IMG/VR virus record: IMGVR_UViG_3300045988_116135
Length of the DNA: 60,409 nt
From: a virus
Reading direction: 5' to 3' (one strand)
Made by a program: the position numbers and the translations under genes. The notes beneath the pieces are model-generated. The model did not search any database, was not told where the DNA came from, and saw only the letters and a list, made by a program, of their open reading frames with translations. Positions 17,360-45,300 of this stretch are shown piece by piece; within the stretch, counting starts at the first letter, position 1; every line of letters starts with the position of its first letter.

Positions 17360-17387
17360 ACGCCCGTGTCAGAAAAAACACGGGCGT
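17360..17387 (-). terminator. Terminator between convergent genes
   Basis: ACGCCCGTGT-8 nt-ACACGGGCGT, with a T-run on the minus-strand side (TTTTATTG). Confidence 0.65.
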
Positions 17388-17417
17388 TATACTTTGGCGA
17401 TGCGAAAAATAGAACTA

Positions 17418-18044
17418 TTACTTGTTGTCATGTTGAATTCTCCTGAACTCCTCGCTCTTGGCGAAGCTACTGACTTGATCCCCCTTGCACATATCGTAGG
17501 TGATAAAGGTCTTCAGCAGAAAAACATCCGGCCCTACGGCTTTGAATCCCATCGCAATTCCCTCTTTACAGGTGGCTAATACATTCTCCCGGTACCCTCC
17601 GTCCACCTCTTCGTGCGAAAATGTGAATGAATAACTATTGTTTATCTCGAAGTACCGCTTAATCAACTCTTTGCCTGTAAGGTTAATTCCCATCCGATCG
17701 GCGAACCGGCTGAAGAAGTGAGGAGGAAACGCGAGAAGAACCATCTTGCCATTGACAAAGACAGGCATATAGGCATACTTGCCATGATTGGTATCATGGT
17801 AGCACACAAAAGAGATCCGGCAATTGTCGCCTATATCCTTTTTATTGTGGGCCTCCCATAATATCAGCCACTTGTTTTTACGCTTAGTGGTAACAAATGA
17901 GTGGATGCGCACAGGAAAGATGCCGGATTTATTGATTATCCGGCTCACCTTAGCGTCCTTGGTATCGGATACGGAGAATATATTGGGATAATCAGCTTTG
18001 ATCTCCTCCAACAATTCGGAGGGTGTCATGCTTGTCGTTATCAT
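17418..18044 (-). CDS. Hypothetical protein (208 aa), last gene of a 3-gene coupled operon
   Basis: 4-nt start/stop overlap with the HTH gene. No motif recognised. Confidence 0.6.
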   Translation of the reverse strand: MITTSMTPSELLEEIKADYPNIFSVSDTKDAKVSRIINKSGIFPVRIHSFVTTKRKNKWLILWEAHNKKDIGDNCRISFVCYHDTNHGKYAYMPVFVNGKMVLLAFPPHFFSRFADRMGINLTGKELIKRYFEINNSYSFTFSHEEVDGGYRENVLATCKEGIAMGFKAVGPDVFLLKTFITYDMCKGDQVSSFAKSEEFRRIQHDNK

Positions 18045-18241
18045 ATTATTTCTATTTTAACTTCTAGTGCGTCACATATCTTCGCAAGGATATCTATCCC
18101 AACGGAGAACTTCCCGTTCTCGACGTTGCTGATAGTTGCTGCCCGAAGATTGGCAAGTTCGGCCAGTTGCCGAACCGTGTAGCCTCTCTCCTTTCGGATT
18201 ACGGCTATTCGTTTCCCTATTCGTTGTCTCTCATTCATCAT
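18041..18241 (-). CDS. XRE-family HTH protein (66 aa)
   Basis: IGKRIAVIRKERGYTVRQLAELANLRAATISNVENGKFSVGIDILAKICDAL. Confidence 0.8.
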   Translation of the reverse strand: MMNERQRIGKRIAVIRKERGYTVRQLAELANLRAATISNVENGKFSVGIDILAKICDALEVKIEII

Positions 18242-20772: not shown

Positions 20773-20818
20773 GATAAAAACGTGTTGCGTGTAACTACGC
20801 GAATTTACACGCAAAAAA

Positions 20819-20920
20819 CATGACATCATATGACATAACATGATATTTAGTGACTGTTTAAAAACACATGAAATCGTTGAACATGAGCGCATATGATATT
20901 GTTTGATAATGTATGACAGT
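20819..20920. promoter_or_regulatory. Cluster of five (C/T)ATGA(C/T)A repeats upstream of int; candidate integrase arm sites / attP arm
   Basis: CATGACAT, ATATGACAT, ACATGATAT, CATATGATAT and GTATGACAG were read directly. Confidence 0.3.
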
Positions 20921-20947
20921 ATAAGTTATGGTCTCTCCATCTCCACA

Positions 20948-21187: not shown

Positions 21188-21604
21188 ATGTTTTCAAATA
21201 TTTTTGAGCTCAAATCCATTCGTGAGCAAAAGTACAGACTCTCTGAGCGTGAATCGGAGATCGCTAAACCTGTGTTAACCGACTTGGGCATGATCGATAC
21301 CCTATATGAGTGGTTCAAGGAGATAGCCCTCGGAGGAAAGCCAATCCCTAAAGGGAATGTACCGCAAAGGAAAAAATTCATATTCATAATATTATATCTT
21401 TATTCTCCTATGACCTTGGCTGGCGGTAAGATGAAGGCTGGGTTGAGAGAAAAACTAGGGAACGTGCTAGGGATTAAGGAGAAGACAGTAGTTTCCAATA
21501 ATATCAATGGCATAGTTTTTTCTTATCAATTGTATAAGTACTTTAGGCAAGATATAGAGCGTATTTTCTCTGAGATATCGATTCGGCTGGGTAAGACCAA
21601 ATAA
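21188..21604 (+). CDS. Hypothetical protein (138 aa), first gene of the rightward operon
   Basis: ATG ORF. Confidence 0.6.
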   Translation: MFSNIFELKSIREQKYRLSERESEIAKPVLTDLGMIDTLYEWFKEIALGGKPIPKGNVPQRKKFIFIILYLYSPMTLAGGKMKAGLREKLGNVLGIKEKTVVSNNINGIVFSYQLYKYFRQDIERIFSEISIRLGKTK

Positions 21605-31885: not shown

Positions 31886-32085
31886 CAGGTAATGAGACCA
31901 TGCTAGGGCAAGTGGCCACATTCATGGAATCGTTAAGATTGTCTTATGAGGACGTGGTTTATAAAATACCTTATCGAAACCTTCTGATCATGCAGAAGGA
32001 TATATTGCATAGCGTTACCGGTGATTTGATCGTGGAGAGAACCGGGCGTGATTTGTTGAACCGAAAGGGAAAGGAGGGTGATTAA
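31882..32085 (+). CDS. -1 frame extension (gpT-like part of the G-T fusion chaperone)
   Basis: No ATG at its 5' end. It is in the -1 frame relative to 31502..31885 and ends 1 nt into the tape measure start. Confidence 0.6.
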   Translation: MTGNETMLGQVATFMESLRLSYEDVVYKIPYRNLLIMQKDILHSVTGDLIVERTGRDLLNRKGKEGD

Positions 32086-35000
32086 TGGCAAAACTAAATT
32101 TCGAGGTCGATGCCGATCTACAGAAACTTATAAATCTTCGAAAGGAGGTGGAGGAGTTGAAATCCGCCTTGAAGGATTTCGATGTATCTACAGATACCAA
32201 GGGATTTGACGATTTAAACCGGAAATACGAGGAGGCGACACGGAAACTAAAGGACTATGAGCAGCAGATGCAGAATTATCAAAGGGTAATAGAGCAGCTT
32301 AAGGTCTCTAATGGTATTATTGATGGGGCTCGTCAGATAACAGAAGAATTGAATAACGCTACCGATGTGTTTGTCGAGCAACAACTAAAGGTTAAAGGCC
32401 TAAGTGACGAGATCAAAAAACTCAATAAGTCTTACTTGTCTCTCTCGGATGCGGATAAAAATTCCCAGAAGGGATCTAATATATTAACCGACCTGAAGGA
32501 GAAGACCCGGCAGCACGCTTTAGAGAACGAGGCCCTGAAGAGGCTAAGGAAGGAATATTCGGACAATATCAAGATCGAGGGAGCCGCCTCGGATTCCCTC
32601 GTAGCGTTGAGAAAGCAATTGTCGTTGCTTAATGCCGAGTATGACCGCCTTTCCGCTACGGATAGGAAAGCGACCGTAGGGACTAACCTGCAAAAACAGA
32701 TACAGGCCTTGAATACGGAGATTAGTTCGGCGGAGCAAGCTACCGGACGATATCAACGGAACGTCGGCAATTACGCCAGTAGTTGGAACGGATTGAGCGT
32801 GTCGGTTCAACAGGTCGCAAGGGAGTTGCCTTCCCTTGCTGTTGGCTGGAATACATTCTTTTTGGCTATATCCAATAACTTGCCGATGCTTGCCGATGAG
32901 CTGAAGAAAGCCGCTGCGGAGTATAAGGCGTTCAAGATGGCTGTAGCGGCAGGAAATAATGACGTGGCAAAAGTGGCTCCTGTCTGGAAGCAGTTGATAA
33001 CATCTATTTTCAGCTGGCAAACGGCCTTGGTTGCGGCGATAACGCTTTTATCTGTCTATGGGAAGGATATTATCGAATGGACGAAAAAATTATTTGGAGC
33101 AGGCGAGGCTATAAAAAATACAAAGCAGCTACAAGATGAGCTAAACCAATCTTTTTCTAAAAATTCCGGAGAATTAAGCAAGTTGATTATTCAGTTTAAG
33201 TCATATCAAAGACAGTGGAAAGAACTTGCAGGTAATTTGCAAGAACAGCAGAAATTTATTGAGAAGAATAAAGATGCGTTTGATTCGATGGGGGTTTCGA
33301 TTAAGTCTGTAAGAGATGCTGAGAATTTGTTTGTGGATAATACAGATAATTTCATAAACTCATTGAAATTGCGTGCTCAAGCTACTGCCGCTCAAGATTT
33401 AGCTGCCGAAGAATATAAAAAGGCTATCCAAAAAGAAATAGAGGCAGATAAAATTAGAGAAAAAGCAAGTGAAACTCGTAAAAAACAGGAAATTGACGCA
33501 ACCGGGGTTATACAAGATACTCGTTTTGGTAATATAAAATCTCATCAACAATTAGTAGAAGATAGGGCAAAAAGTTTTGATCATGAAGCGGAAGCTGTAG
33601 ATAGAGACGCACAAGCCTTGAAGCGGAATGCGGACGCTTATTTTGAACTTGGTAAGGCAAAAGAACAGGCGGCTGATGATCTTCTTTCTAGTTCAGGCAT
33701 TGAAAAGTACGATAAATACGAAGAAGATAGACTTAAAAAAGCTCAACAAGAAACAGAAAGACAAAAGAAAGAGGCTGAAAAACAAAAAGAAATACAAGAG
33801 CGTGTTAATCAGCAATTACTTGATCTCCAAAATAAGAACCAGCAATCTAGGATAAATCTTATGGAGGAAGGATCCGATAAGCGCATCGCCCAAATAGAAT
33901 ATGATTACGATCGTGAAATAGAGGCTATCCGTAAGAGGGAGAAAGAGTGGCGTGAGGCTCAAGGGGGAAAACTCACGCAAGAACAAACGGTTGAAATAAA
34001 AACAGCCATTACGCAGGCTCAGGCTACCCGTATGCGGTCCACGCAAGAAGTAGAGAACGAGCAGATCGAGGCTCAACGTAAAGCCATGAATGATTATCTT
34101 AAGGAATATGGCACTTATCAAGACAAAAAAATGGCACTCGCCGCCGAATACGGGCAAAAAATAGCGTTTGCCGAGACCGAGGGGGAGAAATTGATACTCG
34201 GGAAGGAATGGGATAAGCAGCTTTCCGACCTTGAGATAAAAAGTGGCAATACCGCCAATGCCATAATCGCTCTTTTTGGAGACATGAAGGACAAGACTCT
34301 AAAGGAGTTGATAGAGATATCCACCAAGGGAAAGGAGGCCTTGGAGTTTCTTAAGTCCGGAGAATGGGATGAATCAAAAGGCAAGGGATTAGGCATAACG
34401 CAGGAACAATTCGATCTTTGGTCTGATATGCCTGAAATAATGGATAGGGCAGGGAAAAGCGTTGAGAGCACCAACGAGAAGGTCGATGAGTTGCGACCCG
34501 CTTTTGACAAGGTGACAGAAGGAGTGAGGCGATTCTTTGCCGCTGGTGACGACCCCAAAAAACTGACGGAATCATTACAGCTCATTAATGAGGGTGTAAA
34601 TGAAGTTATGACCTCTGTTCAATTCTTGTCTACTTCATTTCGAAAACTAAGCGAGTCTATTGATATAAATGCTATTGAAGAAGTTGCGGATGGGTTTGAG
34701 ACTATATTTGATTCTATATCATCAGGAATGGAGGGGGCTATTTCTGGGGAAAAGTTTGGTGAGCTAGCTGCTTCTATAGGAAAAAAACTGGGTGTTATAG
34801 GAGAAAAAGCTGCGTCTTTATTTGGCCCTATAGGAACCGCCGCTGGTGCTGCTATTGGGGTAGTGACCTCTCTAGCGTCCTCTATCGCTAAGATCCATGA
34901 CAAAAAGAACGAGAAACGTATACAGAGATTACAAGACCAGATCGATGTGTTGGATGCCTCGTATGAGAAGCTAGGCCGTTCCATAGAAAAGGCTTATTCT

Positions 35001-35864
35001 ACGGACGCTTCTAAGCTCATAAACCAGCAAAATAAATTGCTAGAGCAGCAAAAAGTGATCATCCAACAACAAATCGAGGAGGAAAGGAACAAGAAAAAGA
35101 CCGACGATGACCGGATCAAGGATTGGCAAAAGCAATTGGAGGATATCAACGCTCAATTGGAGGACAATAAGGAGAAAGCTGTAGAGGCTATAACAGGAAC
35201 CGATGTCATGTCCGCTATTGACGAGTTCGCCCAAGCGTATTCGGAGGCGTGGGCTACAGGAACTGATGCGGCAGAGGCTTCGACTAAGATTGTCCAAAAT
35301 TTGATCAAGACGGCTATCATTGAGTTCTTGAAGAAGAAATTATCCCCTTCCGTAGAGGAATTCATGAAGAAACTGGCCGATTATATGTCCGATGGTATCG
35401 TTTCGCCTTGGGAAGAAGCGGAGTTGAACAAGTTGAAGGAAAAAATGGACGCTGAGGCCCAGAAGGTCTTCGACACGTCAAGCAAGTATTTCCAAGAGGA
35501 TAAAAATGATAAATATGAGCAGACCGCTACATCCGGAGGTTTCGAGAAGATGTCTCAAGATAGCGCCGATGAGTTAAATGGCCGTTTCACCGCCCTGCAA
35601 ATGACAGGGGAGGAGATACTGTTGTTCTTGCAAGGCTCCGAGCAATTCTTGAGCCTCTTGTATATAAAGGCCAGTATGGACGTGATATCTGTAAAGATAG
35701 CCTCGTTGTATGACGTGGCGGATGAGACTAGGACGATGATCGCCAGTATCTATATAGAGTTACAGCAGATCAATGATAATACCGCTATTAGCGCAAAATA
35801 TTTGAAAGATATAAAATCTGATATAGCTGTAGTTAAAAAGAACACAGAAGGATTGGCGCCTTAA
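32085..35864 (+). CDS. Tape measure protein
   Basis: 1259 aa, long coiled coils plus hydrophobic segments (WNTFFLAISNNLPML.., ALVAAITLLSVYG). Confidence 0.9.
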   Translation: MAKLNFEVDADLQKLINLRKEVEELKSALKDFDVSTDTKGFDDLNRKYEEATRKLKDYEQQMQNYQRVIEQLKVSNGIIDGARQITEELNNATDVFVEQQLKVKGLSDEIKKLNKSYLSLSDADKNSQKGSNILTDLKEKTRQHALENEALKRLRKEYSDNIKIEGAASDSLVALRKQLSLLNAEYDRLSATDRKATVGTNLQKQIQALNTEISSAEQATGRYQRNVGNYASSWNGLSVSVQQVARELPSLAVGWNTFFLAISNNLPMLADELKKAAAEYKAFKMAVAAGNNDVAKVAPVWKQLITSIFSWQTALVAAITLLSVYGKDIIEWTKKLFGAGEAIKNTKQLQDELNQSFSKNSGELSKLIIQFKSYQRQWKELAGNLQEQQKFIEKNKDAFDSMGVSIKSVRDAENLFVDNTDNFINSLKLRAQATAAQDLAAEEYKKAIQKEIEADKIREKASETRKKQEIDATGVIQDTRFGNIKSHQQLVEDRAKSFDHEAEAVDRDAQALKRNADAYFELGKAKEQAADDLLSSSGIEKYDKYEEDRLKKAQQETERQKKEAEKQKEIQERVNQQLLDLQNKNQQSRINLMEEGSDKRIAQIEYDYDREIEAIRKREKEWREAQGGKLTQEQTVEIKTAITQAQATRMRSTQEVENEQIEAQRKAMNDYLKEYGTYQDKKMALAAEYGQKIAFAETEGEKLILGKEWDKQLSDLEIKSGNTANAIIALFGDMKDKTLKELIEISTKGKEALEFLKSGEWDESKGKGLGITQEQFDLWSDMPEIMDRAGKSVESTNEKVDELRPAFDKVTEGVRRFFAAGDDPKKLTESLQLINEGVNEVMTSVQFLSTSFRKLSESIDINAIEEVADGFETIFDSISSGMEGAISGEKFGELAASIGKKLGVIGEKAASLFGPIGTAAGAAIGVVTSLASSIAKIHDKKNEKRIQRLQDQIDVLDASYEKLGRSIEKAYSTDASKLINQQNKLLEQQKVIIQQQIEEERNKKKTDDDRIKDWQKQLEDINAQLEDNKEKAVEAITGTDVMSAIDEFAQAYSEAWATGTDAAEASTKIVQNLIKTAIIEFLKKKLSPSVEEFMKKLADYMSDGIVSPWEEAELNKLKEKMDAEAQKVFDTSSKYFQEDKNDKYEQTATSGGFEKMSQDSADELNGRFTALQMTGEEILLFLQGSEQFLSLLYIKASMDVISVKIASLYDVADETRTMIASIYIELQQINDNTAISAKYLKDIKSDIAVVKKNTEGLAP

Positions 35865-35880
35865 ATATACCAATCCTTCT
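35846..35880. terminator. Bidirectional hairpin spanning the tape measure stop codon
   Basis: AGAAGGATTGG-13 nt-CCAATCCTTCT, with a T-rich tract on the minus-strand side. Confidence 0.5.
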
Positions 35881-35888
35881 GTATATTG

Positions 35889-36086
35889 TCACTTTTTATC
35901 GAAAGAAAGTACAGTCTTTTCATGTATACCATTTTCATTAAAGAAATGGTCTATTGAAGACAAGACATATTCTTGATTTTTAAAATGAAAAATGGCACCA
36001 TTTTTCGTATATGCCATAAATCTAGTCGTGCTGTACTCTTTTTCGACAGATTGATCACCAAATTGAAAAACTAAAATTGTGTCCAT
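35889..36086 (-). CDS. Small antisense-oriented gene (65 aa from ATG 36086) inside the tail module
   Basis: MDTILVFQFGDQSVEKEYSTTRFMAYTKNGAIFHFKNQEYVLSS... Convergent with the tape measure gene. Confidence 0.4.
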   Translation of the reverse strand: MDTILVFQFGDQSVEKEYSTTRFMAYTKNGAIFHFKNQEYVLSSIDHFFNENGIHEKTVLSFDKK

Positions 36087-36132
36087 GATTAATTGAATTA
36101 AATAATACGCTAATATACTAAAATAGTTTGAT

Positions 36133-36555
36133 ATGGAAGTAAGAGATGTAACAAGGAAAGCTATAAAAATAGGGGCTTGCAGTGAATCAGGCAAGGCCAC
36201 TGACTGGAAGAGCCTATGTTGGCTGTTTTTTTCCCCGCAAGGGCGGGAGTTTTGCGAGGAGAATAATTATCCCTCGTTGGATTTATTTAGAGGCATGGCT
36301 AAAAACATAGCTCCCTACGGGATATACGTGGATCGTGATCTAATTGAGCTTCACAATAAAACAAACGTAGGTGTGATAGGTAATACCGTGGCGTATTTGA
36401 GTTATGACGATAACACGAGGGTGCATAAGGTGATCTTGATGCACGGGGGCAAGGCCAAGATAGAGGCCGGGAACTACTCCGTGATATTGCTTGTCAATAT
36501 CGGGGGATGCGAGGTGGAGATTATTAACGACGGAACGGCAAGGATATTATGTTAG
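36133..36555 (+). CDS. Hypothetical tail-module protein (140 aa)
   Basis: ATG ORF. Confidence 0.55.
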   Translation: MEVRDVTRKAIKIGACSESGKATDWKSLCWLFFSPQGREFCEENNYPSLDLFRGMAKNIAPYGIYVDRDLIELHNKTNVGVIGNTVAYLSYDDNTRVHKVILMHGGKAKIEAGNYSVILLVNIGGCEVEIINDGTARILC

Positions 36556-36962
36556 GGGATCTATATATTAACGGGAATGACGCATGGGGCACGTATCGTG
36601 TCGCCATGGGAGAGGGTTTTATCCAGACCTTGCTAACCCCAGCGGGAAACAAGGATTTCATAGAGAACGAGAGCCGGTTGGAAAACGGGAAGAGGGTCGT
36701 GTTCAATAATCCCAAGGTGGCTAGCCGGGATCTTACCCTTACGTTCAATATACACGGTGATACGCAAGAGGAATATTTGCTGAATTATAAGGCGTTCGTG
36801 GCTGTCCTTCAACAAGGCAAGGTCGTGTTGCGTGTTCCGGATCTTGGTATGACATTTACCCTTGTCCATAAGAGATCATCAAGCTTTGCCTTGGATCGTA
36901 ATAGGCTGAATAGTAGGCTTTCCGTTAAGTTCGAGGAGCCTGATCCTACGTCAAGAGGATGA
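36549..36962 (+). CDS. Distal tail protein-like (by position)
   Basis: 137 aa after the tape measure. GDLYINGNDAWGTYRV..RDLTLTFNIHG. Confidence 0.45.
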   Translation: MLGDLYINGNDAWGTYRVAMGEGFIQTLLTPAGNKDFIENESRLENGKRVVFNNPKVASRDLTLTFNIHGDTQEEYLLNYKAFVAVLQQGKVVLRVPDLGMTFTLVHKRSSSFALDRNRLNSRLSVKFEEPDPTSRG

Positions 36963-37003
36963 TAAAAAGCCGTCCGGCCCTTATTGGCTAGACGGCTTTT
37001 TCC

Positions 37004-37255
37004 TCATTGCGCTAAAAGATGCGTGTTTAACGATCGAAGGTCGAATCTTCCCGGCTTTGACCTTCCGTTGTTGTACACCGAAACAGTCATGCTTGGCTTG
37101 GGGTTGGTCTCTCTAAATCCGCAAGCCCTCTCCAGCTCATCGATCAACCTCTCCATCTTGATGGATTGCCGGTTGAATCGCTCCATCGCTTTCTTATCCT
37201 CCCTTGATATCAAGGCTATGTCGCTGAGTATTTTATTTATATCTTTCATATTCAT
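37004..37255 (-). CDS. Hypothetical protein (83 aa)
   Basis: ATG ORF in the accessory island. Confidence 0.5.
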   Translation of the reverse strand: MNMKDINKILSDIALISREDKKAMERFNRQSIKMERLIDELERACGFRETNPKPSMTVSVYNNGRSKPGRFDLRSLNTHLLAQ

Positions 37256-37385
37256 CTAGTTTTAAATCATTGCATCTATTCACTAATTGTCATGGAATTG
37301 GCTGTACGTCCTTACGCCGTACCTATATAATCCACTTGGCACTGATTGTTGGATCATAGTTAAGGTTTGGGGATGCTTAATCTAA

Positions 37386-37748
37386 TCATAGGTTATCTTC
37401 TAAGTATCTATTGATATAGTCTCGTAGTTTTATTACATCTTTTTTTGAGGAAAGAACGATTCCTACCTCTTTTTCACATATATTGTCGCATACTGCAATA
37501 AATAATGCAGTGTTTTCAGGATTAATACTCTTGTGCCCTTTTTTGTCTATGCCGTATACATATGATTTTTGCATTTCAATAATAGCTCCATCATCTGAAT
37601 TGACTGAAACGGTTTTGTACTTGCCTTCCCACTCTTTGACTTCTTTTAGTGTCATATCTTCCGTCTGGATAAATCTAAGATTACCTTTACTCGCTAAATA
37701 AGGCATACGGATGATTTTATTTGATCTGTTTCTTCTATGTTTGCTCAT
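37386..37748 (-). CDS. Hypothetical protein (120 aa)
   Basis: ATGA overlap with the KilA-N gene. Confidence 0.55.
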   Translation of the reverse strand: MSKHRRNRSNKIIRMPYLASKGNLRFIQTEDMTLKEVKEWEGKYKTVSVNSDDGAIIEMQKSYVYGIDKKGHKSINPENTALFIAVCDNICEKEVGIVLSSKKDVIKLRDYINRYLEDNL

Positions 37749-38515
37749 CTTTCTATCATTTTAATTTGTTTATTATGTTCCATGACTGCATTGGCTACGA
37801 TCTTGGATGCTTTTCCGCTAGCCAATTCACATTTTCCGTTACCTCTTAGATCATTCTTCTCGATGTCCTCGGAGGCTAAAGCTTCCGCAAGGCCCACTGC
37901 CATCAACTCAGCTATGCTCATATGATCTCTTATGTTCGCTGTTTTGGGAAGATTCTTCTTCTCACGTATTACATTTGTACCACCGCCATACAAATGACTA
38001 TATATAGCATTTGTACAATTGCGGAAACCTTCACGTTCCACGCCATGAGAAGCTAGTGTACTAGTAAATGCGCTACGGGATATTTTACCTTGAATCCTTT
38101 GAGCAATCCATCGCTCATTTTTACCTTTTCTTTTATATGTGTTTATGGCACGATCAACGATCAAATCGGGATTCTTCTCTTCTTCTACACTTTGAAAGAA
38201 AACCTCGTTAACCAATACGCCTAAATCTGCATCTAGATATTGAGCGTATTCAAGAACTACGTGCTTAATACCGTAAGTACCACCACCTTTACCTCTTTTG
38301 GATTTTATAATGTGTGAAAATCCCACATTTAAAATCTTACTTACAGACTTTAAATATTCTTCTGCTTGAGGTAGTCTTTGCCATTGTCTAGGATCTTTGT
38401 TCTGTGGACTTCCAGCCAAGATCCATAGGTCGTTCAGGGAAAATTTATCTCCGTCTCTGCCGATTTTTTCTAAAATATTAGCATCATATTTTGCTAATTC
38501 ATTTTTATTTTTCAT
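37745..38515 (-). CDS. KilA-N domain protein
   Basis: FSLNDLWILAGSPQNKDPRQWQRLPQAEEYL..KRGKGGGTYGIKHVVLEYAQYLDADLGVLV. Confidence 0.75.
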   Translation of the reverse strand: MKNKNELAKYDANILEKIGRDGDKFSLNDLWILAGSPQNKDPRQWQRLPQAEEYLKSVSKILNVGFSHIIKSKRGKGGGTYGIKHVVLEYAQYLDADLGVLVNEVFFQSVEEEKNPDLIVDRAINTYKRKGKNERWIAQRIQGKISRSAFTSTLASHGVEREGFRNCTNAIYSHLYGGGTNVIREKKNLPKTANIRDHMSIAELMAVGLAEALASEDIEKNDLRGNGKCELASGKASKIVANAVMEHNKQIKMIER

Positions 38516-38599
38516 AACTTTGTGCAGTTATAAAGGTTAATATTATCCTCATTGGTAGCTCGGTCAAGCACTACCTTTGAGGATTTTATTTTGACCGAA

Positions 38600-38641
38600 G
38601 TGGTAGCCGGGGACTTGAACCCCGGTGTATTCCGTCCTACC
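38600..38641 (-). pseudogene. tRNA 3'-half-like minihelix (T arm plus acceptor strand), related to 14389..14414
   Basis: GGTAG-GACGGAATACA-CCGGGG-TTCAAGT-CCCCGG-CTACC-AC. It shares GTGGTAGCCGGGG(A)ACT(C/T)GAACCCC with the 14.4-kb element. Confidence 0.4.
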
Positions 38642-38859
38642 TGCTTATTACCAGTCTCGCTTGACAAGGTAAAAAGCGAAGGGCAAAGATTGAAGTTGCC
38701 TATTGTGACGGTCTGCAACTGGAATCAATGCCCTTAAATATCTTCTTTCGCTACCGTCACGTGAGCGATCATTTTCATATCACAAAATTATATATGACAA
38801 AATCCGTGGCCTATTTTTTCAAGGCTCGAAAAACCACAATGGAGCTATTGTTGTAAAAT

Positions 38860-38883
38860 CCCTCCGGCCGTATTACCGGAGGG
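38860..38883 (-). terminator. Hairpin CCCTCCGG-8 nt-CCGGAGGG after 38918..39175
   Basis: On the minus strand it is followed by ATTTTAC. Confidence 0.5.
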
Positions 38884-38917
38884 GCATCTACTTCCGATCC
38901 TCTCCCCGTCGTTCGAG

Positions 38918-39175
38918 TTATCCCGCAAGCCTGCAAGTCATGTCGCTAATTACGCTCATGAACCTATCGTAGGTCTTTTTATTCCATTCCTTGTGATCCG
39001 GCATCCAGTCATTGAATATCTCCATGTAGACCACCTCGTGAAATCTGTCCTGTACGGTGACGCATAAACCGCCCGTCTCCGGCATTACGCCTACGTTTAT
39101 ATGTACCGGTTTCTTTCCGATCATACACTCCAACGCAATCCTTTGTACGTTCTTCAATACCTCTATCGTTTCCAT
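38918..39175 (-). CDS. Hypothetical protein (85 aa)
   Basis: ATG ORF. Confidence 0.5.
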   Translation of the reverse strand: METIEVLKNVQRIALECMIGKKPVHINVGVMPETGGLCVTVQDRFHEVVYMEIFNDWMPDHKEWNKKTYDRFMSVISDMTCRLAG

Positions 39176-39201
39176 ATCCTTATATTATTAATGTATAGTT
39201 A

Positions 39202-39465
39202 TCAATCACCCGAATAAACCCTGTTACCGTAAAGGCTAGCCATACCGACATGAGATAAGACAACATGCTTGCGATACTCGATGCGTCTAGCTTCTTCCTC
39301 TGCCAATCTCTTGGCCTTGGCCTCATTATTTTTTATCTCTATCTTGGCATTATCCCATGCTATAGAAAGGCACTTGCCAAAAGACCAAGAGAATTTTCGG
39401 TAAAGTCTGAATAATCTCCATGCGTCTTTCATGATCTCACTCTTGTTGTATTTCTGTGTTGCCAT
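39202..39465 (-). CDS. Hypothetical protein (87 aa)
   Basis: ATG ORF. Confidence 0.5.
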   Translation of the reverse strand: MATQKYNKSEIMKDAWRLFRLYRKFSWSFGKCLSIAWDNAKIEIKNNEAKAKRLAEEEARRIEYRKHVVLSHVGMASLYGNRVYSGD

Positions 39466-39497
39466 TGTACTGTTGTTTTATTTTGATGATGCAAAAG

Positions 39498-39603
39498 TAA
39501 ACCTATTTTCTTTACTAAACAATAAAAAGTAAAGAAAATGCGATTATTTAAGACACTTTAATAAACCTATTTTCTTTACAACTACATAATAAGACTATAT
39601 TTG
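39498..39603. promoter_or_regulatory. Divergent intergenic control region with 18-nt perfect direct repeats, an inverted half-site and a -7 box
   Basis: TAAACCTATTTTCTTTAC occurs at 39498-39515 and 39562-39579. The inverted half-site GTAAAGAAAAT is at 39529-39539. TATATTTG is at 39596-39603. Confidence 0.55.
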
Positions 39604-39617
39604 CATAAAAAATATTT

Positions 39618-39929
39618 ATGACAGAAAATACAGATATTTTCAAATTAAGGATAAAGGATATTCTTTCGGATAAGAATATGACGTCAAAAGAACTTGCAGA
39701 TAGAATGGGCAAGGCTCCTCAGTATATTAGCAATATAATAAATGGCGGCAAGGGGGTTTCTATACCTACACTAATTGAGATTGCTAAATATCTTGACGTA
39801 GAGTTTAGGGATTTGTTTGCGTCAACAAGACAAACTGATGCAGAAGTAATTGGAGCTGTCCGAATAGGCAACATCACCCATGTAATCAATAGCAAGGAAG
39901 ATATTAAGAAGTTAGCAGAAAAGTTGTAA
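39618..39929 (+). CDS. XRE-family HTH regulator
   Basis: MTSKELADRMGKAPQYISNIINGGKGVSIPTLIEIAKYLDVEFRDLF. Confidence 0.8.
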   Translation: MTENTDIFKLRIKDILSDKNMTSKELADRMGKAPQYISNIINGGKGVSIPTLIEIAKYLDVEFRDLFASTRQTDAEVIGAVRIGNITHVINSKEDIKKLAEKL

Positions 39930-39943
39930 TTTATTTAGATACT

Positions 39944-40570
39944 ATGTTCGACTACGATTTATTAGAAAAGTGCTGTGTATATAAAAATAATACACTCACA
40001 TGGTTCACAGAAGAAGTACATCCAGTTGTTTACATGCTAAAAATTGGAGATGATAATTATATAGGCTCAACTTGGAACTTAAAAAACAGGGTAAATAATT
40101 ATATTACCGCACTTCCCAAAGGCGAATATAATGCAAAATCTGTTCAAAACGCATATAACAGGAATCAATCTATTATCGTATACATAATTGAGAGAATTAT
40201 AATAGGAGACATAAGAGTTCGAGAACAATTCTATATAAATCTTATAAATCCGACATTAAACACATTTAAAACAACAAGTACAACGAAGTTAGATTTTATG
40301 GAAAATCATATTCAAAATGGATTTTTTCAGCTAAGAACTAACGAATGCCTTAAACAGCATCATATATCTCCTAATACAGTTGCTGAAAAATTAGGGATGT
40401 CTGCTTATATGTTTAATAAAAAAATGCAATATCCGACACATGATTTCCTTTATAAAGTAGCAAGAACAATGGATATACCATTTATAGATTTTTTCACAAA
40501 TGAGCCATATTATCCACAAGGTGTTTATTTTAAAATTGATGGGAAAGTTTACAAAGCAACTGCTGAATAA
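39944..40570 (+). CDS. GIY-YIG nuclease fused to a C-terminal HTH
   Basis: VVYMLKIGDDNYIGSTWNLKNRVNNY..REQFYINLINPTLN fits GIY..YIG..R..E..N. The C-terminus reads ISPNTVAEKLGMSAYMFNKK..ARTMDIPFIDFF. Confidence 0.65.
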   Translation: MFDYDLLEKCCVYKNNTLTWFTEEVHPVVYMLKIGDDNYIGSTWNLKNRVNNYITALPKGEYNAKSVQNAYNRNQSIIVYIIERIIIGDIRVREQFYINLINPTLNTFKTTSTTKLDFMENHIQNGFFQLRTNECLKQHHISPNTVAEKLGMSAYMFNKKMQYPTHDFLYKVARTMDIPFIDFFTNEPYYPQGVYFKIDGKVYKATAE

Positions 40571-40575
40571 GAATC

Positions 40576-40698
40576 ATGGATGCAATAGGCTGTCCAATAA
40601 CAGAACTCTTCGCATCCCCTTCCGAAGTACAAAAAGAGACCGATGGTGGGTATAAATGTCCTAACTGCGGGCATCCATTGAAGATAAAGGTGGAATGA
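40576..40698 (+). CDS. Possible zinc-ribbon miniprotein (40 aa)
   Basis: Hand-translated as MDAIGCPITELFASPSEVQKETDGGYKCPNCGHPLKIKVE. Confidence 0.3.
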   Translation: MDAIGCPITELFASPSEVQKETDGGYKCPNCGHPLKIKVE

Positions 40699-40792
40699 TG
40701 TTATCTTCAATGATCTCAAAATAAAAATCATGAAAGTTTGTTTTCTGCATACAATGCACTACCTTTGCGATACAATATAATACAGAAGTAAT

Positions 40793-41035
40793 ATGGAAGC
40801 AGTAATAAGAAAACAAACCTCGTTCCGTTTACGTGAAGACTTGTTGCAAGTCTTGCAGGAGCAAGCCAAGAAAGCGAACAGGAGTTTGAATAATTTTGTA
40901 GAGAGCACCTTGATGGACGCTGTATACTCCGAGCCAAACGAGGAAACGATAGCGGCTATAAGGGAAGCACGCACGACCAAGAATAAAGAAACGTTCGACA
41001 GCGTGGATAGTTTGATGGAGGAATTAATGAAGTGA
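40793..41035 (+). CDS. RHH-type antitoxin (RelB/DinJ-like)
   Basis: TSFRLREDLLQVLQEQAKKANRSLNNFVESTLMDAV. It overlaps the toxin start. Confidence 0.7.
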   Translation: MEAVIRKQTSFRLREDLLQVLQEQAKKANRSLNNFVESTLMDAVYSEPNEETIAAIREARTTKNKETFDSVDSLMEELMK

Positions 41036-41310
41036 AAAAGAAATTACACCCAACAAGCCAGTTTAAGAAAGATTTCAAACGTATTCAGAAATTCCCCAAA
41101 AAAATCGCAGCTTTTGAATATATCGCAAATCTGCTTATAAATGACCATCCGATTCCACAAGAATACAAACCTCACATGTTGAAAGGTGAGTATAAAGGTT
41201 GTATGGAATGCCATATCGAAGGAGATTTTCTTCTTATTTGGATTGACGGAGAAATAATCGACTTGCTTAGAATTGGTAGTCATTCCGAGTTGTTCGGAAA
41301 AAAGAGATAG
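41032..41310 (+). CDS. yafQ: YafQ/RelE-family mRNA interferase toxin
   Basis: SQFKKDFKRI..KPHMLKGEYKGCMECHIEGDFLLIWI..IDLLRIGSHSELF. GTG start overlapping the antitoxin stop. Confidence 0.8.
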   Translation: MKKKLHPTSQFKKDFKRIQKFPKKIAAFEYIANLLINDHPIPQEYKPHMLKGEYKGCMECHIEGDFLLIWIDGEIIDLLRIGSHSELFGKKR

Positions 41311-41322
41311 ATAAGTACAAAT

Positions 41323-41661
41323 ATGAATACATTGACTTACAAAGGCTATATCGGGTCTGTATCTTTTAGCGAGAAGGACAATGTTTTCTTTGGAAAGATA
41401 GAAGGCATTGATGGTCTTGTTAATTTTGAGGGGGAAAGCGTGCGGGAACTTACAACGGCTTTCCACGAGGCTGTAGATGATTATCTGGCGTATTGCGAGG
41501 AAGAGGGGATTGAACCGCATAAGAGCTATTCTGGCTCATTGAACGTTCGTTTATCACCGGAACTTCATAGTAGAGTGGCTGTTCTGGCAAAGCAAGCAGG
41601 CGTTTCTATTAACGCTTTCATAAAAAAAGCCGTGGAAAAGCAAGTTGCTGTAATGTTGTGA
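41323..41661 (+). CDS. hicB: HicB-family antitoxin (with RHH C-terminus), no adjacent HicA
   Basis: TYKGYIGSVSFSEKDNVFFGKIEGIDGLVNFEGESVRELTTAFHEAVDDYLAYCEE..GSLNVRLSPELH. Confidence 0.8.
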   Translation: MNTLTYKGYIGSVSFSEKDNVFFGKIEGIDGLVNFEGESVRELTTAFHEAVDDYLAYCEEEGIEPHKSYSGSLNVRLSPELHSRVAVLAKQAGVSINAFIKKAVEKQVAVML

Positions 41662-41782
41662 ATTATAGAGTTATGAAAATTATATGTTGTAAAATATAAA
41701 TTTTACCCTCCCCTATTTGCATATATTAACAAATAGCTTTATATTTGCAGCAATTTACTAATCATTAAAAAACGTTTTTAAA

Positions 41783-42181
41783 ATGAAGAAGCTTTTGTTT
41801 ATTATGGCAATGATGTTGCCGTTGTTTACCTTTATTGGATGTTCGGATGATGATGAAAAGAAAATCCCTGATGAAATGAAAAATATTTACGGAACTTGGG
41901 TCTTGAATCAAGTTGATACAGGAAATGGAGATGGTTATGTGGATTGGCCAATGAAAGAAACATCTGCTACTTTTAATGAAGATGGTACATATTCCGGAAG
42001 TGGATATTTTGGAAATGGTTCCGGAACATATATATTGGAAGGAAGTACTATAACTTGTTTTGTTGAAGGTAAAGAGTTTGTCAAATATGATATTATAAGT
42101 TTAGCAGAAAATAATTGTGAATTAAGAATGTATATATCAGGCAGTGATACAGACTTAAAAATTAAATGTCGAAAGTTCTAA
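41783..42181 (+). CDS. Lipoprotein (132 aa)
   Basis: Signal peptide plus lipobox: MKKLLFIMAMMLPLFTFIGC-SDDDE. Confidence 0.75.
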   Translation: MKKLLFIMAMMLPLFTFIGCSDDDEKKIPDEMKNIYGTWVLNQVDTGNGDGYVDWPMKETSATFNEDGTYSGSGYFGNGSGTYILEGSTITCFVEGKEFVKYDIISLAENNCELRMYISGSDTDLKIKCRKF

Positions 42182-42193
42182 TTATTATTCACA

Positions 42194-42226
42194 GGCCCCG
42201 CTTCCCACAGTTCGGGGCTTTTTTAT
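42194..42226 (+). terminator. Rho-independent terminator after the lipoprotein gene
   Basis: GGCCCCG-12 nt-CGGGGCT followed by TTTTTAT. Confidence 0.75.
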
Positions 42227-42307
42227 TTCCTCCTACAACAAAATTACAACAATCCCGCCATTGTTTTTTTTAGGTCCGCTTGATTTTTTGCCATCCCCCT
42301 TATATGC

Positions 42308-45300
42308 GTGAACTTTGAGTTCATGATCGAGATAAAGGACATATTGGGCAATACTCGTTTCTCGACCCCTATAAACCGGGGCGCAAAGGGGAGATTCACC
42401 TTGATGAAGGAGGACTATATAACCCTTCCTTTTAGCGTTGAAACGCCTATTGATTTCAAGCCGGGCGACTATGTGGACATGAGCGGGGTACTCGATGACG
42501 CTTTAGGAGGTAAGTTGTCCAAGGTATATAAATACCTATCCTTGCAGAAGCCCAATGTGGTGCCGGGAAAATATGATTATGAGTTAAGGTTGGACGCTTA
42601 TTATTATGAGTGGAACACGAAGATATTCAAGTATACCCCGGAAAATCATGGACAGGAGGCAGGATGGAACCTTACCGCCACTCTTGACACGCAACTGGGC
42701 GTGTTCCTGCGTAACCTTAAAGCTAACGGATATACGTATAACGGCGTCGATTATGACTTTGATATAGACAACACGGTCGAGAACAAGGCCGTGTTGATGT
42801 CTTATGACAATATCCACCTTTTGGACGCCCTTTTCTCGATGGCCGCCGAGGACAAGTGGAATTGCGACTGCTGGATAACCGATAATATCATCCATTTCGG
42901 GCGTTGCGAGTTCGGCGACGCCGTAAAGATAGAGTTGGGCGTAGAGGCTTCCTCTATGACCCGTAACGATAGCAAGGGTACTTACGCAACACGTATATAC
43001 GTGTTCGGAGGTACCAGAAACATCCCTGTCAACTATCGTCCGGTAGATGAGCAGACCGTAGTCAACGGTGTCGTGCAAAAGCGGCTCATGCTCCCATCTG
43101 GGACACCGTATATCGATGCCTATCCCGGCATGACCAACGCCGAGGCCGTGGAGGACGTGGTGGTATTTGACGATATCTATCCCAGACGGATAGGTACGTT
43201 GTCGGATGTTAAGACCGTAGACAGGAACATAGAGACGGACGGCGAGGTGACGGGGACTTTCAAGGCTTATCAATACAAGGATACCGGGTTGGTGTTCAAG
43301 GATGAGTATATCATAGAGGGCGAGGGATTGAAGGTCACGTTCCAATCCGGGAGACTTAATGGCATGACTTTCGGAGTCACTTTTAACCCCGAGGGAGCGG
43401 AACCCGTCGAGCAATTATGGGAGATCGTCGCTAACGAGGATTATGGCCGCTTGTTACCAGACGATGTGATCCGTCCGGAGAACGGCGATAAATATATACT
43501 TTCCGGATTCAATATACAATTAGTGTCCGACCAATATATATCGGAGGCGGAGGCGGAGCTTCTGGCCAAGGGTAAAGAATATATAAAGAGAACCAGTATT
43601 GACGATGGCACGTACCCGACTACGTTGGACTCGGAATGGGTCTATCAAGACCAGATCAACCGGACTTACGACGTGGGGCAGAGGATGCGGATGGTCAATC
43701 CCGCTTTCTTCTCGTCGGAAGGGCGTATCAGTCGTGTTATAGGCTGGGAGATGAGCCTTGATATCCCTTATGATTCTCCTGTATATACTATAGGCGAGAG
43801 CACTCAATACAGCCGGCTTGGTGAATTGGAGGACAAGGTTGATTCCTTGACTTATAAAGGACAGACATATACCGGTTCAGGGGGAAGCGGCGTATACGTT
43901 ATCCGTACCAATGACTCCACCCCGGCAAGCGACAGCAACGTATTCTCCGCCCTTCGCTCGTTGGCGACATTCTTGCGCAAGGACAAGCCGGACCAGACCA
44001 AATATCTAATCAAGCTCCTCGGAGGATTGATATCCGATAATATCGAGTCTCAGGATTTTGCCGCCGGTCCTTTCGGCACGGGGTTCCTCGTGAAAAGGGA
44101 CCCAAAGACCGGTAAATCATATATAGAGGCGGACGAGATCTACATCCGCCTTAAAGCGTATTTCGATACCTTGGAGATCAAGCACCTCTCTCACGTGGGA
44201 GGGCGTATCGTATTATCTCCGGCGAGCATGGAGTGCATTCGGGTGGAGGAGGTATCGGTAGATCTGGATGCCTTGTATGACTTTAACGGTGATCCGCTAT
44301 ATGATGTGGAGGATAGCCGGTTGTACTCATTAGGAGGCTCCGGACGTGCCACTACCAACGTGTATAGGTGTTATTTCCGGCAGACCGACGGGGAGAGGGA
44401 GATCGTGAATGAGTTCGCTATCGATGACATGGCCCAATGCCGGGAGTTTAACGTGAAGACCGGGATATCCCATAATGTCCGTAACCAGTATTACTGGCGC
44501 AGGGTCGTAGGCTTGGGGAGTGATCATATAGACTTGTCGATAGATGATTGTGACCCCGGCAGCATGGTCCCGAAGGCGGGTGATACGATCGTCACGATAG
44601 GCAACAAGACGGATACCAATCGTCAGCATGTAGTTTATCTATCCTCCTACGACGATGACGCTCCGTGCTTCAAGCTGTATTCCGGTATCAACTCTTACTC
44701 GATGTTGAATAAGGAAGTGACGGTCATTTCCCCGAACGCCGACAAGAACGTATTCACGGGCAAGGTAGTCATAAAACCGGGGTCTGCCGGCTTCGAGAAC
44801 TTGACAGACAAGCCGGACATGGAAGGCATAAATAATTCCATCAAGAATGCCCAAGAAGCCGCCTCCGCCGCCCAAGAGGCTATCGAGGGAGTGCAAGGCT
44901 CGGTGGATAATTTCAAGTATTACGTTGATAACACCTTCGCCGATGGAATCATATCGGAGGCGGAGACCAAGGATATCGCCCGCTATATAGATATCGTAAA
45001 CAACGAGAAGGCATCGTCATTGGCTACATATAATGAGTTGAGGATCAATCCTTATCTTGACGGGGCAGAGCTTGTCTCCTTGGAAGAGGCCAAGGAAACC
45101 CTGTTCTCTTCCATAGATAGCCTGATCGACGCCGTAAACAAGGCCATAGCGGACAAGAAGGCCACGGAAGAGGAGATAGCCGATATAAACGATAAATACA
45201 CGGAGTTCAATACCGCTTGCGGTAATTTTTATTCCGCTGTGGAGAACGCTAACAAAAAAATACAGGATAATCTTAAGTCATACTCGGATAACGCCCAGAA

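Follow-up and report, generated by a model that had tools for sequence, protein, structure and literature searches.

Why does a 5.3-kb block with genes on both strands lie inside the tail operon of a phage, and what could it do there? We explored this question in the IMG/VR virus record IMGVR_UViG_3300045988_116135, a stretch of 60,409 nucleotides (hereafter, the window), in which positions 36963–42307 separate the gene of a Dit-like distal tail protein from that of a large Tal-like tail protein. The original prediction, made from the letters alone, had placed about 14 genes on both strands between these two tail genes, and all of the listed open reading frames (ORFs) were found in place. Our analysis indicates that this island is probably a lineage-specific accessory and regulatory region, shuffled by recombination, in a temperate siphovirus of gut Bacteroidales.

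The Dit-like protein was used to search IMG/VR, which gave 49 loci (labeled L001, L002 and so on), and 39 close relatives among them carry both flanks of the island. The protein is 97–99% identical in 45 IMG/VR relatives and 70% identical in three distant ones, and its length is always 136–137 aa. In the loci with the 70%-identical protein (L046–L048), the Dit and Tal genes are 77–377 bp apart. They are about 80 bp apart in the cultured Bacteroides phage BS-TP2 (Tal 55% identical), and they overlap in Porphyromonas phage phage010a. The genes for the tape measure protein (TMP), Dit and Tal are thus contiguous elsewhere, and this alignment with relatives establishes the insertion and bears out the claim that a tail operon has been interrupted. 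In the close relatives (Dit 97–99% identical), the gap was filled in 39 of 39 cases, with 2.9–6.9 kb. The GC content of the island is 0.369, versus 0.429 from TMP to Dit and 0.503 in Tal.

When all ORFs of the gap were clustered, 33 arrangements were found among the 39 relatives, and gene flux in the island is much above that of the flanking structural genes. The nucleotide coverage profile showed conserved linkers that alternate with segments common to few genomes (Table 1). The order of the slots is nevertheless constant. On the left, Dit is followed by o83, one or more antirepressor-type genes, a non-coding block, o85 and o87, all on the minus strand, and then by a divergent control region. 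On the right, on the plus strand, come a helix-turn-helix (HTH) regulator, optional cargo, a toxin-antitoxin (TA) module, a lipoprotein or envelope protein, and Tal. The optional cargo is GIY-YIG, YbjQ with a zinc ribbon, or Gp49-HTH. Parts of the island core have been lost in L035, L043 and L101. The exchange extends to the right flank, where two Tal alleles are 43% identical across the N-terminal 400 aa; a 140-bp junction (42200–42340), kept in 31–38 genomes, joins both alleles to the island, so the receptor-binding region also seems to be exchanged as a cassette.

A search of GTDB genomes for Dit gave only a 40%-identical copy, in a metagenome-assembled genome (MAG) of Muribaculaceae (L095, 10420–13454), which is not interpretable. 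There, Dit is followed by small ORFs in mixed orientation (an HTH protein, an M15 peptidase and a weak UPF0150-like match, E = 0.006) and no Tal gene is present; L095 may have a separate island at this site, or its prophage may be cut short.

Table 1. Features of the window, with positions counted from its first nucleotide.
Feature	Coordinates	Strand	Remarks
C5 methylase	4658–5518	-	domain match
ERF recombinase	12163–12837	-	domain match
Integrase with Arm-DNA-bind_5 domain	19492–20892	-	domain match
TMP gene	32085–35864		head and tail genes start at ~21 kb
Linker	36100–37250		conserved
Dit-like distal tail protein, 137 aa	36549–36962	+	full length; phrog_6305 'tail protein' E = 5e-30; weak Dit and Sipho_tail matches
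Two-way terminator-like hairpin	36964–37001	both	between Dit and o83; AAAAAGCCGTC...GACGGCTTTTT; inverted repeat I7, 16-nt arms, 88% complementary
o83, small conserved ORF	37004–37255	-	last gene of left arm; ~45 loci, two alleles (99%, 83%)
o120 + KilA-N segment	37350–38500		common to 15–19 loci
o120	37386–37748	-	15 loci, always beside cluster C12; one cassette with KilA-N gene
KilA-N protein, 256 aa	37745–38515	-	antirepressor-type slot; DinD-C/DdrC/PDC-S13-like C-terminal domain
Linker	38500–39450		conserved
Candidate short antisense RNA (~65 nt)	38515–38596	+	-7 box TAACTTTG at 38515–38522, H6 read on +, then ATTTTATTTT
Conserved structured leader RNA, ~270 nt	38516–38790	-	ends at KilA-N ATG
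Leader RNA hairpin H6	38584–38545	-	
tRNA-like acceptor/T-arm minihelix	38641–38602	-	acceptor stem GGTAG...CTACC; T-arm CCGGGG-TTCAAGT-CCCCGG
Leader RNA hairpin H4	38672–38648	-	
Leader RNA long hairpin H3	38733–38681	-	
Leader RNA hairpin H1	38767–38749	-	
Leader RNA -7 box	38790–38783	-	TAATTTTG
Tandem terminator-like hairpins after o85	38834–38883	-	GC-rich 38883–38860, AT-rich 38853–38834
o85, conserved core gene, 85 aa	38918–39175	-	95–99% identical in 37 loci
o87, conserved core gene, 87 aa	39202–39465	-	two alleles (100%, ~54%); phrog_28198 1.5e-12
Divergent control region	39466–39617	both	three operator-like repeats GTAAA-N9-TTTAC
XRE + GIY-YIG segment	39500–40600		common to 2 loci
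XRE-family HTH regulator, 103 aa	39618–39929	+	HTH_3 2e-13; rare allele without zinc ribbon, linked to GIY-YIG gene
GIY-YIG nuclease, 208 aa	39944–40570	+	C-terminal HTH-like region; free-standing, homing-endonuclease-like
Zn40, 3' stump of resident HTH + zinc-ribbon regulator	40576–40698	+	aligns to last 40 residues (...IADAIGCPVTELF...CPNCGHPLKIKVE)
Linker	40600–40950		conserved
RHH antitoxin candidate	40793–41035	+	weak RHH/HicB/RelB matches; 4-nt overlap with YafQ gene
YafQ-family toxin	41032–41310	+	E = 2e-29; PF15738 101.9 bits vs cut-off 30
YafQ gene segment			common to 20 loci
Linker (HicB)	41300–41650		conserved
Orphan HicB antitoxin, intact, 112 aa	41323–41661	+	HicB E = 8e-22, 77.4 bits
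Lipocalin-like lipoprotein	41783–42181	+	lipobox FIGC then SDDDE (MKKLLFIMAMMLPLFTFIG-C-SDDDE); Lipocalin_4 E = 4e-5; -7 box at 41740
Lipoprotein gene segment (window's type)			common to 7 loci
Predicted terminator hairpin + T-run	42195–42226	+	right boundary module
Second hairpin	42244–42271	+	inverted repeat I1
Right boundary module	42195–42340	+	includes junction into first Tal codons; kept in 31–38 loci while both neighbors vary; persists in rearranged L106
Linker	42200–42340		conserved
Tal gene segment (window's allele)			common to 10 loci
Tal-like tail protein, 1632 aa	ATG 42323 to 47221	+	PHROG tail families, Flg_new_2 repeats

The divergent control region and the regulator beside it vary together. 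The sequence GTAAA-N9-TTTAC has four matches in the window versus 0.12 expected, and three of the four lie in the control region (39498–39515, 39529–39546, inverted, and 39562–39579), where they overlap the -7 boxes at 39499 (minus strand) for o87 and 39596 (plus strand) for XRE. In relatives, the intergenic region between o87 and the regulator is 119–224 bp long and allele-specific past its first ~30 nt. We found 11 N-terminal types of the regulator, and at least 10 alleles. For 9 of the 11 types, an own 13-mer is repeated 3–4 times in the type's own intergenic region and 0–2 times in those of the others. The copies occupy equivalent positions (about +31–38, +58–76 and +96–131, with a fourth further on in some). 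For the remaining two types (MSIC/MSMC), three GTAAT-N8/9-ATTAC sites were seen by eye only. Such co-variation is the pattern that an autoregulated repressor and its tripartite operator would show under diversifying selection. The usual resident regulator, in about 35 relatives, is an HTH protein of 84–97 aa with a C-terminal zinc ribbon. The XRE regulator of the window, an assignment of the original prediction that the HTH_3 match upholds, is 100% identical only in L017, L033 and L098; a 64%-identical copy stands in L099, again beside a GIY-YIG gene.

Divergent promoters, three operators and many immunity-like alleles are also what a primary lysis-lysogeny switch would have, and the island might be such a switch (repressor, cro-like gene and antirepressor) sited in the tail operon. 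We regard this as quite improbable. A second HTH pair, formed by a 146-aa HTH candidate (16620–17060) and a 66-aa XRE protein on the opposite strand (18041–18241), lies at the usual place near the integrase. The 146-aa protein has no match in Pfam and bears the motif '...NIAWLLTGVGDM', which we take to be that of a CI-type HTH. The distant relatives and BS-TP2 are without the island, and its core is partly lost in the three loci named above. The main lysogeny control region is likely to be 16620–18241, and because the second HTH pair adjoins the integrase, the island switch is more likely to serve secondary than main immunity.

The other constant element of the island is the non-coding block. 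Between o85 and the slot gene, 402 nt are 95.5–99.5% identical in 48 viral contigs, and L092 keeps this identity though its o85 and o87 are 71% and 54% identical. The block folds better than its shuffles (z = −4.8). A protein-coding reading was rejected because 1-nt indels are tolerated at several places, and a template or internal repeat of a diversity-generating retroelement was rejected as well, no second copy being present anywhere in the window. A metagenome scan with a 22-mer of the T-arm and acceptor gave 36 human-gut contigs, nine of them with copies 77–86% identical; in all, about 90 public viral and gut-metagenome contigs bear the element. In the diverged copies, homology starts at the -7 box TAATTTTG and stops 1 nt before the start codon of the next gene. 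We describe it as a leader RNA, and its U-G wobbles fit the minus strand.

Covariation was estimated in a 13-sequence alignment that includes metagenome homologues, because the close family alone is too invariant (98% column identity). The stems of H1 and H3 were left out of the count, since MAFFT misaligns the diverged copies there, and were inspected by eye. We found that 98.6% of cells were paired, and nine pairs (24 cells) showed compensatory double changes. The covariation score was 0.202 versus 0.102 ± 0.010 for shuffled alignments (0 of 500 as high), and slid controls paired in only 32–52% of cells. Two further pairings covary between lineages. In the first (L1/L3), the H1 loop GTGACGGT is complementary to the H3 loop ACCGTCAC, and four sequence types retain the complementarity (elsewhere GTGGTAGTT/AACTACCAC, GTGGCACTC/GAGTGCCAC and GTGGCTGTC/GACAGCCAC). 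In the second (S2), TCGGTCAA just 3' of the minihelix is complementary to TTGACCGA in the H6 loop, with three sequence types (the others being ATCAGGCA/TGCCTGAT and TTCGGAC/GTCCGAA). For steric reasons, S2 and H6 probably do not coexist in a single fold, and the two are therefore likely to be alternative structures.

The original prediction had read part of this block as the relic of a tRNA 3' half. The minihelix has its own 5' acceptor strand and belongs to the covariation-supported structure, and ARAGORN did not call it a tRNA in any of its runs, so this reading was abandoned. The minihelix is nearly invariant in all copies; in L114, the acceptor stem has 7 bp (TGGTAGC/GCTACCA). Its 23-mer had no exact match in 185,579 GTDB genomes. 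Partial Rfam matches to the leader RNA were fragments of the T-arm only (tmRNA, 12.5 bits; mascRNA, 17.7 bits). The position of the element is fixed: the distance from T-arm to ATG is 82–86 nt in every lineage, and in each context examined the leader runs up to the ATG of the antirepressor-type gene. The analysis thus shows a structured element, supported by covariation in the alignment and absent from Rfam, with apparent mimicry of a tRNA. A short antisense RNA of about 65 nt is possible as well, because a -7 box stands before the ATG and a T-run follows H6 on the plus strand. The T-run occurs in all variants. The box is TAACTTTG, or TATATTTG in copies of the L114/L122 type, and the -7 consensus on this strand is kept in both variants upstream of the ATG (CAAAGTTA, CAAATATA).

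The ORF 3' of the leader varies, and it is of KilA-N, Bro-N-ANT, KilA-N-ANT, Rha or, weakly, AntA-like type; two such ORFs (257 aa and 105 aa) had no family match. The relatives of the window fill the slot with Bro-N-ANT, KilA-N-ANT, Rha-ANT or Rha proteins. In the window, the KilA-N gene named in the original prediction is matched by Pfam KilA-N (1e-9), and its C-terminal part by PADLOC PDC-S13 (9e-24, residues 108–250), NCBIfam DinD (2e-8) and DdrC (4e-7), and PDB DdrC (2.5e-3). The small gene o83 had no family match in the scans of Pfam, PHROG, PADLOC and NCBIfam-type libraries.

The claim that the island has its own regulatory sites and terminators agrees with what can be read there. Bacteroides-type -7 boxes (TAnnTTTG) stand just upstream of XRE, o87, the ribbon-helix-helix (RHH) gene, the lipoprotein gene and the leader RNA. 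Hairpin/T-run signals resembling terminators close both ends of the island, and are also present after o85. A generic scan for sigma-70 promoters and terminators is unsuited to Bacteroidales and was uninformative (33 promoter-like sites vs 22.3 ± 4.6 expected; three terminators vs 5.2 expected). Both arms of the island end in a two-part signal, a GC-rich hairpin followed by 'TTACAACAAT-N6-ATTGT' and a T-run (38834–38853, minus strand; 42244–42271, plus strand), which suggests a double terminator module shared by the two arm ends.

Taken further, the leader could be a new class of phage regulatory RNA that gates an interchangeable antirepressor-type gene and, with the regulator/operator switch, forms a two-layer secondary immunity. 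We propose this tentatively, as a reading with somewhat less than an even chance. Within it, the leader could be a type-specific 'immunity RNA' processed by RNase P, as the Bacteroidales equivalent of P1 C4 and P4 CI, or a sensor that couples induction to the state of host tRNA processing and translation. An acceptor stem with a T-arm is a minimal RNase P substrate. Several points weigh against our main reading of the island. Rfam gave no full family, C4 included, at E ≤ 1 over 8 kb or at E ≤ 10 over 421 nt. The TTTG upstream of the leader's -7 box is 7–9 nt off, versus the usual ~19–21, and the promoters, terminators and RNA ends of the island are themselves predictions from sequence. L1/L3 may be a plain tertiary contact and not a determinant of specificity. 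The slot proteins are antirepressor-type by domain architecture, from which we infer their activity, and the KilA-N gene of the window is without an ANT (KilAC) domain. The most conserved proteins of the island, o85 and o87, have no assigned role. Lastly, the lipocalin lipoprotein is incompletely linked to Tal allele A (6/8 vs 4/31, Fisher p = 0.0014), and both adjacency and shared ancestry confound this linkage.

The right arm holds the RHH antitoxin, YafQ toxin and orphan HicB of the original prediction, of which YafQ and HicB are matched strongly and the RHH protein weakly. The RHH-YafQ pair has its own -33/-7 promoter motif (TTTG-N19-TACCTTTG, with the -7 box at 40760). In the alignment with E. 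coli YafQ (4ML2), the His, His, Asp, His and Phe positions are conserved, which we take to be catalytic. By sequence features, the pair fits a type II TA module of the DinJ/YafQ kind (RelE superfamily), and its toxicity and neutralization are predicted. In relatives, the TA slot is filled by a second RHH-YafQ allele (81%/49%) or by HicA-HicB, and additionally by Gp49 (HigB-like)-HTH. An identical HicB follows HicA in at least L003, L004, L011, L015, L034, L038 and L045, and in the window and 16 others, RHH-YafQ stands in place of HicA before HicB. No HicA was found in the window, so HicB forms no HicAB pair there.

The lipoprotein and the strong terminator after it were also recovered, the former by its lipobox and Lipocalin_4 match and the latter as a hairpin with a T-run. 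The gene has its own -33/-7 promoter motif. The surface-export motif of Bacteroides lipoproteins (LES) is CS(D/E)2 or K(D/E)2 after the Cys (PMC6222051), and the lipoprotein is predicted from its SDDDE to be surface-exposed. PDB sequence searches gave no match for the lipoprotein or HicB. Relatives carry Big_2, leucine-rich repeat (LRR) or 165-aa lipoproteins, a DUF4468 secreted protein or a membrane protein in this slot, and L108 (3418–7533) carries a 1371-aa ORF. In the lipocalin, 165-aa, Big_2b and LRR types, acidic residues directly follow the lipid-attachment Cys, as read from the sequences. A YafQ-type pair, an orphan HicB and a predicted surface lipoprotein thus adjoin the tail gene, in agreement with the content first described.

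Such content might mean that the island is mainly an anti-phage defense hotspot of the P2/P4 kind, in which the regulator keeps the TA module, the nuclease and the PDC-S13-like protein on in the lysogen. YafQ, HicAB and Gp49-HTH modules alternate in one slot, the C-terminus of the KilA-N protein matches the PADLOC candidate PDC-S13 at 9e-24, the lipoprotein could exclude superinfecting phages, and such hotspots are known in P2 and P4 (PMC9122126). However, PADLOC-DB v2 found no complete defense system in the island of the window, and gave only HTH/HEase and PDC-S13-like matches (RHH, YafQ and Zn40 were not scanned). The most conserved parts (leader RNA, o85, o87, the regulator with its operators and the antirepressor-type slot) are regulatory in character, and the TA modules may equally be addiction modules. 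We consider mainly defensive use unlikely, with perhaps one chance in a few. Of the original idea of a moron or defense hotspot, the shuffled accessory hotspot holds and the defense part is not supported, since no complete system was found by PADLOC and the genes present speak for regulation (secondary immunity, antirepressor control) no less than for defense.

The small genes o85 and o87 raise a further alternative, that the island is a counter-defense locus. An Aca-like HTH repressor would then control o87, o85 and the orphan HicB, which would neutralize CRISPR or TA-based abortive infection in the host at an early stage. NCBIfam AcrIIA3_fam is matched weakly by the N-terminal half of o87 (E = 2e-6), but the score is 27.7 bits versus a cut-off of 70 and half of the model is covered. 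The AlphaFold2 model of o85 (pLDDT 77.8) predicts a small alpha/beta protein with an alpha-beta3-alpha fold. Its search against PDB and BFVD gave nothing at E ≤ 1e-3, and the best, non-significant match was the T7 dGTPase inhibitor Gp1.2 (E = 0.017, TM 0.47). The helical model of o87 (pLDDT 76) had no BFVD match at E ≤ 1e-3, so that all fold matches of the two proteins are below significance. None of the 28 homologues of o87 is named, and the C-terminal end of the family, ...YSGD, is conserved. An intact orphan HicB is retained in 17 genomes, and a small HTH gene beside small unassigned genes is the arrangement of anti-CRISPR (acr-aca) loci, but the HTH gene here is divergent from o85 and o87, not 3' of them. 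We judge this explanation improbable.

A GIY-YIG-HTH nuclease had been named as a possible importer of the island. Its identification is plausible: the Pfam match is below the cut-off (E = 6e-4, 20.6 bits vs 22.6), and weak matches occur in four other libraries (PHROG endonuclease 6e-6, PADLOC HEase 8e-6, TIGR01453 2e-5, and in PDB T4 EndoII, 0.016, and I-TevI). The cassette of XRE and GIY-YIG genes is near-identical in the window, L017 (nuclease frameshifted), L033 and L098; L099 has a diverged copy (XRE 64%, GIY-YIG 78% identical) and L101 a 59-aa GIY-YIG stump. The neighboring zinc-ribbon miniORF is not to be counted as a gene. It matches the final 40 residues of the 84–97-aa regulators, and a homology breakpoint lies inside it, where sharing goes from 2 to 17 to 28 loci. 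It is what was left of the resident regulator gene after the cassette took the place of the promoter and of two-thirds of the gene at its 5' end. The island is in every close relative and the cassette in four near-identical genomes plus one diverged copy and one stump, so import of the island by the nuclease does not fit, and the cassette is best read as a late, sporadic invader with the habits of a homing endonuclease.

The same evidence bears on the idea that the whole island is a discrete mobile element, be it a homing-endonuclease cassette, a helper-embedded satellite or a user of the tRNA-like element as attachment site. Low GC content, mixed orientation and the GIY-YIG gene would suit it, and satellites inside prophage late genes exist, with Bro-N-network genes and repressor RNAs (PMC10111431). 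Those published satellites carry integrases (PMC10111431), but no integrase, AlpA, replication or transposase gene was found in about 40 versions of the island, and no direct repeats flank it. The GIY-YIG gene, confined to a handful of genomes, came in later than the island. None of the 185,579 genomes contains the tRNA-like 23-mer, the breakpoints of the variable slot are ~90 nt from the tRNA-like element, at the start codon, and the phage attachment junction is at ~20.93 kb. This explanation is largely refuted and we give it very little weight; recombination at the supposed tRNA relic fails on the same absent 23-mer and on the prophage junctions described below.

The window is the ~60-kb genome of a temperate siphovirus of Bacteroidales type. 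Searches of INPHARED nucleotide sequences gave no match for the island and only fragments for the head and tail region, so the phage is without a close cultured relative. The host/prophage junctions of L106 and L108 map to window positions ~20932–20946, between the integrase and a 138-aa gene (21188–21604), and this is probably the core of the phage attachment site (attP). A position of attP inside the island was rejected on these two junctions beside the integrase. The homology of L106 and L108 to the window stops there, which places the window in the excised (phage) configuration. Past the junction, L106 runs into host peptidase M23 and DctPQM genes and L108 into a GH3 gene. L108 is the MAG GCA_022784765.1 of Parabacteroides distasonis, which provides one host lead. 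The Tal ORF was listed from a GTG at 42308 as a 1637-aa protein; independent gene calls gave 1632 aa, with an ATG aligned to that of L048, and the ATG at 42323 is probably the true start.

Several side observations concern these genomes. L106 (4431–8242) has a 332-aa ORF in place of Tal after the conserved junction at the Tal start, followed by a repressor region, integrase and host DNA, and is probably a rearranged, defective prophage. Pfam gave no match for this ORF or for the 1371-aa ORF of L108. L108 seems to be without a tape-measure gene in its stretch, which could be a deletion or a misassembly. In the window, an AT-rich gap of 270 bp (GC 0.33) and a 140-aa gene (36133–36555, phrog_10156, unknown) lie between TMP and Dit (35865–36555). 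TMP directly abuts Dit in L048 and BS-TP2, and positions 35900–36100 are common to only 6 of 49 relatives; this stretch appears to be a second, smaller insertion into the same tail operon. A 179-aa ORF (13165–13704, minus strand) has about seven tandem copies of an 8-residue unit (GSATVEAY/GSATVKAY) and no Pfam match. Three phage tRNA genes on the minus strand of the early region (Arg-GCG 9827–9911, Met-CAT 14193–14267 and Arg-CCT 16226–16300) have no relation to the minihelix of the island.

If the island is the accessory and regulatory region that we favor, it may work as follows. The regulator would bind the three allele-specific operators between the arms and repress the divergent promoters in a type-specific manner, which would give secondary immunity. 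Transcription of o87 and o85 would end at the terminators, leaving the leader RNA and the antirepressor-type gene as a separate leftward unit. The leader could control this gene post-transcriptionally, by processing at the minihelix (RNase P), by switching between the covarying alternative pairings, or by both, and the short antisense RNA may assist. The TA module and the lipoprotein would be morons expressed from the prophage, the former for addiction, abortive infection or defense and the latter for surface modification or exclusion. Homologous or relaxed recombination at the conserved linkers, plausibly with help from ERF, would exchange the slots without any dedicated mobility enzyme. Rad52-like recombinases have a role in phage mosaicism.

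Temperate phages of Bacteroidales are abundant in the human gut, and the locus offers a definite site at which to study how they control lysogeny and exclusion. The specificity of repressor and operator appears to be diversified here by competing phages, with at least 10 types. Antirepressor-type genes are swapped behind a common RNA leader, and TA modules and, next to the tail gene for receptor binding, surface lipoproteins are exchanged. Through the lipoprotein slot, prophages may alter the cell surface and outer-membrane vesicles of Bacteroidales, and such changes could influence the exclusion of phages and perhaps the interaction with the host.

Searches of a paper library gave no description of this locus. 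Among described systems, the 'ant moron' of P22-like phages (mnt, arc, sar, ant, sieA) comes closest. It lies just upstream of the tailspike gene, occurs in 10 types among 16 genomes, and modulates read-through into the tail gene as well (PMC2629481). Like that moron (immI), the island is a block inserted into the late operon, immediately ahead of the tail gene for receptor binding, and its regulation is predicted to be independent. By gene content, both would combine small repressors with a gene of the antirepressor family, a regulatory RNA and a function in exclusion, and the turnover of the island is similarly high (33 arrangements in 39 relatives). Unlike it, the island belongs to a siphovirus of another host phylum, lies between Dit and Tal, has HTH regulators (with zinc ribbon) where P22 has RHH Mnt and Arc, and adds TA and lipoprotein slots. 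A long structured leader with a minihelix stands against a 69-nt antisense RNA, and there is no sequence homology besides domains of the ANT/KilA-N type.

In P1 and P7, C4 RNA lies upstream of icd-ant and has a tRNA-like precursor that is processed by RNase P (PMC3858429, PMC8201110). As in immI of P1/P7 and CI of P4, a structured RNA with a tRNA-like element lies upstream of an antirepressor-type gene in the same orientation, and short complementary segments within one transcript covary between types. Unlike C4, the leader matches no full Rfam family even at E ≤ 10, is ~3–4 times longer, and has both L1/L3 partners upstream of the minihelix; its processing by RNase P and its antisense action are suggested by analogy. 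If the leader does control antirepressor expression, the P1/P4-type principle of RNA immunity would extend to another phylum.

Like the antiviral hotspots of P2-like phages and P4-like satellites (PMC9122126), the island has a fixed position between conserved genes and rapidly exchanged cargo, presumably expressed from the prophage. Its cargo differs in being mostly regulators, antirepressor-type genes, TA modules and lipoproteins, with no complete PADLOC system. In the helper-embedded phage-inducible chromosomal islands of prophage late genes, a 'dynamic zone' holds Bro-N-network proteins and repressor RNAs (PMC10111431). Here, too, a foreign block with Bro-N-network-type content sits inside a prophage late operon, but it has no integrase or AlpA, no replication zone and no att repeats, and it lies between genes, not within one.

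Exclusion lipoproteins beside receptor-binding genes are known, such as Llp of T5 next to pb5 and Cor of T1/phi80-type phages. The lipoprotein gene likewise has its own promoter motif beside a receptor-binding tail gene, with partial allele linkage. It has no homology to them, the slot proteins range from 131 to 1371 aa with Big_2, LRR and lipocalin folds, and functions at the host surface fit equally. The GIY-YIG protein resembles the T4 Seg proteins and I-TevI in its N-terminal motif region and C-terminal DNA-binding-like region, and in being sporadic, decaying and disruptive of a resident gene. It differs in falling below the Pfam cut-off and in always traveling with its own XRE regulator, even in the 78%-identical copy. 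Late operons with accessory hotspots, regions of secondary immunity, and antirepressors controlled by RNA are all known kinds. What is new here is the other phylum and the tail position, the multi-slot architecture, the HTH-zinc regulator with at least 10 apparent operator specificities, and a leader RNA absent from Rfam.

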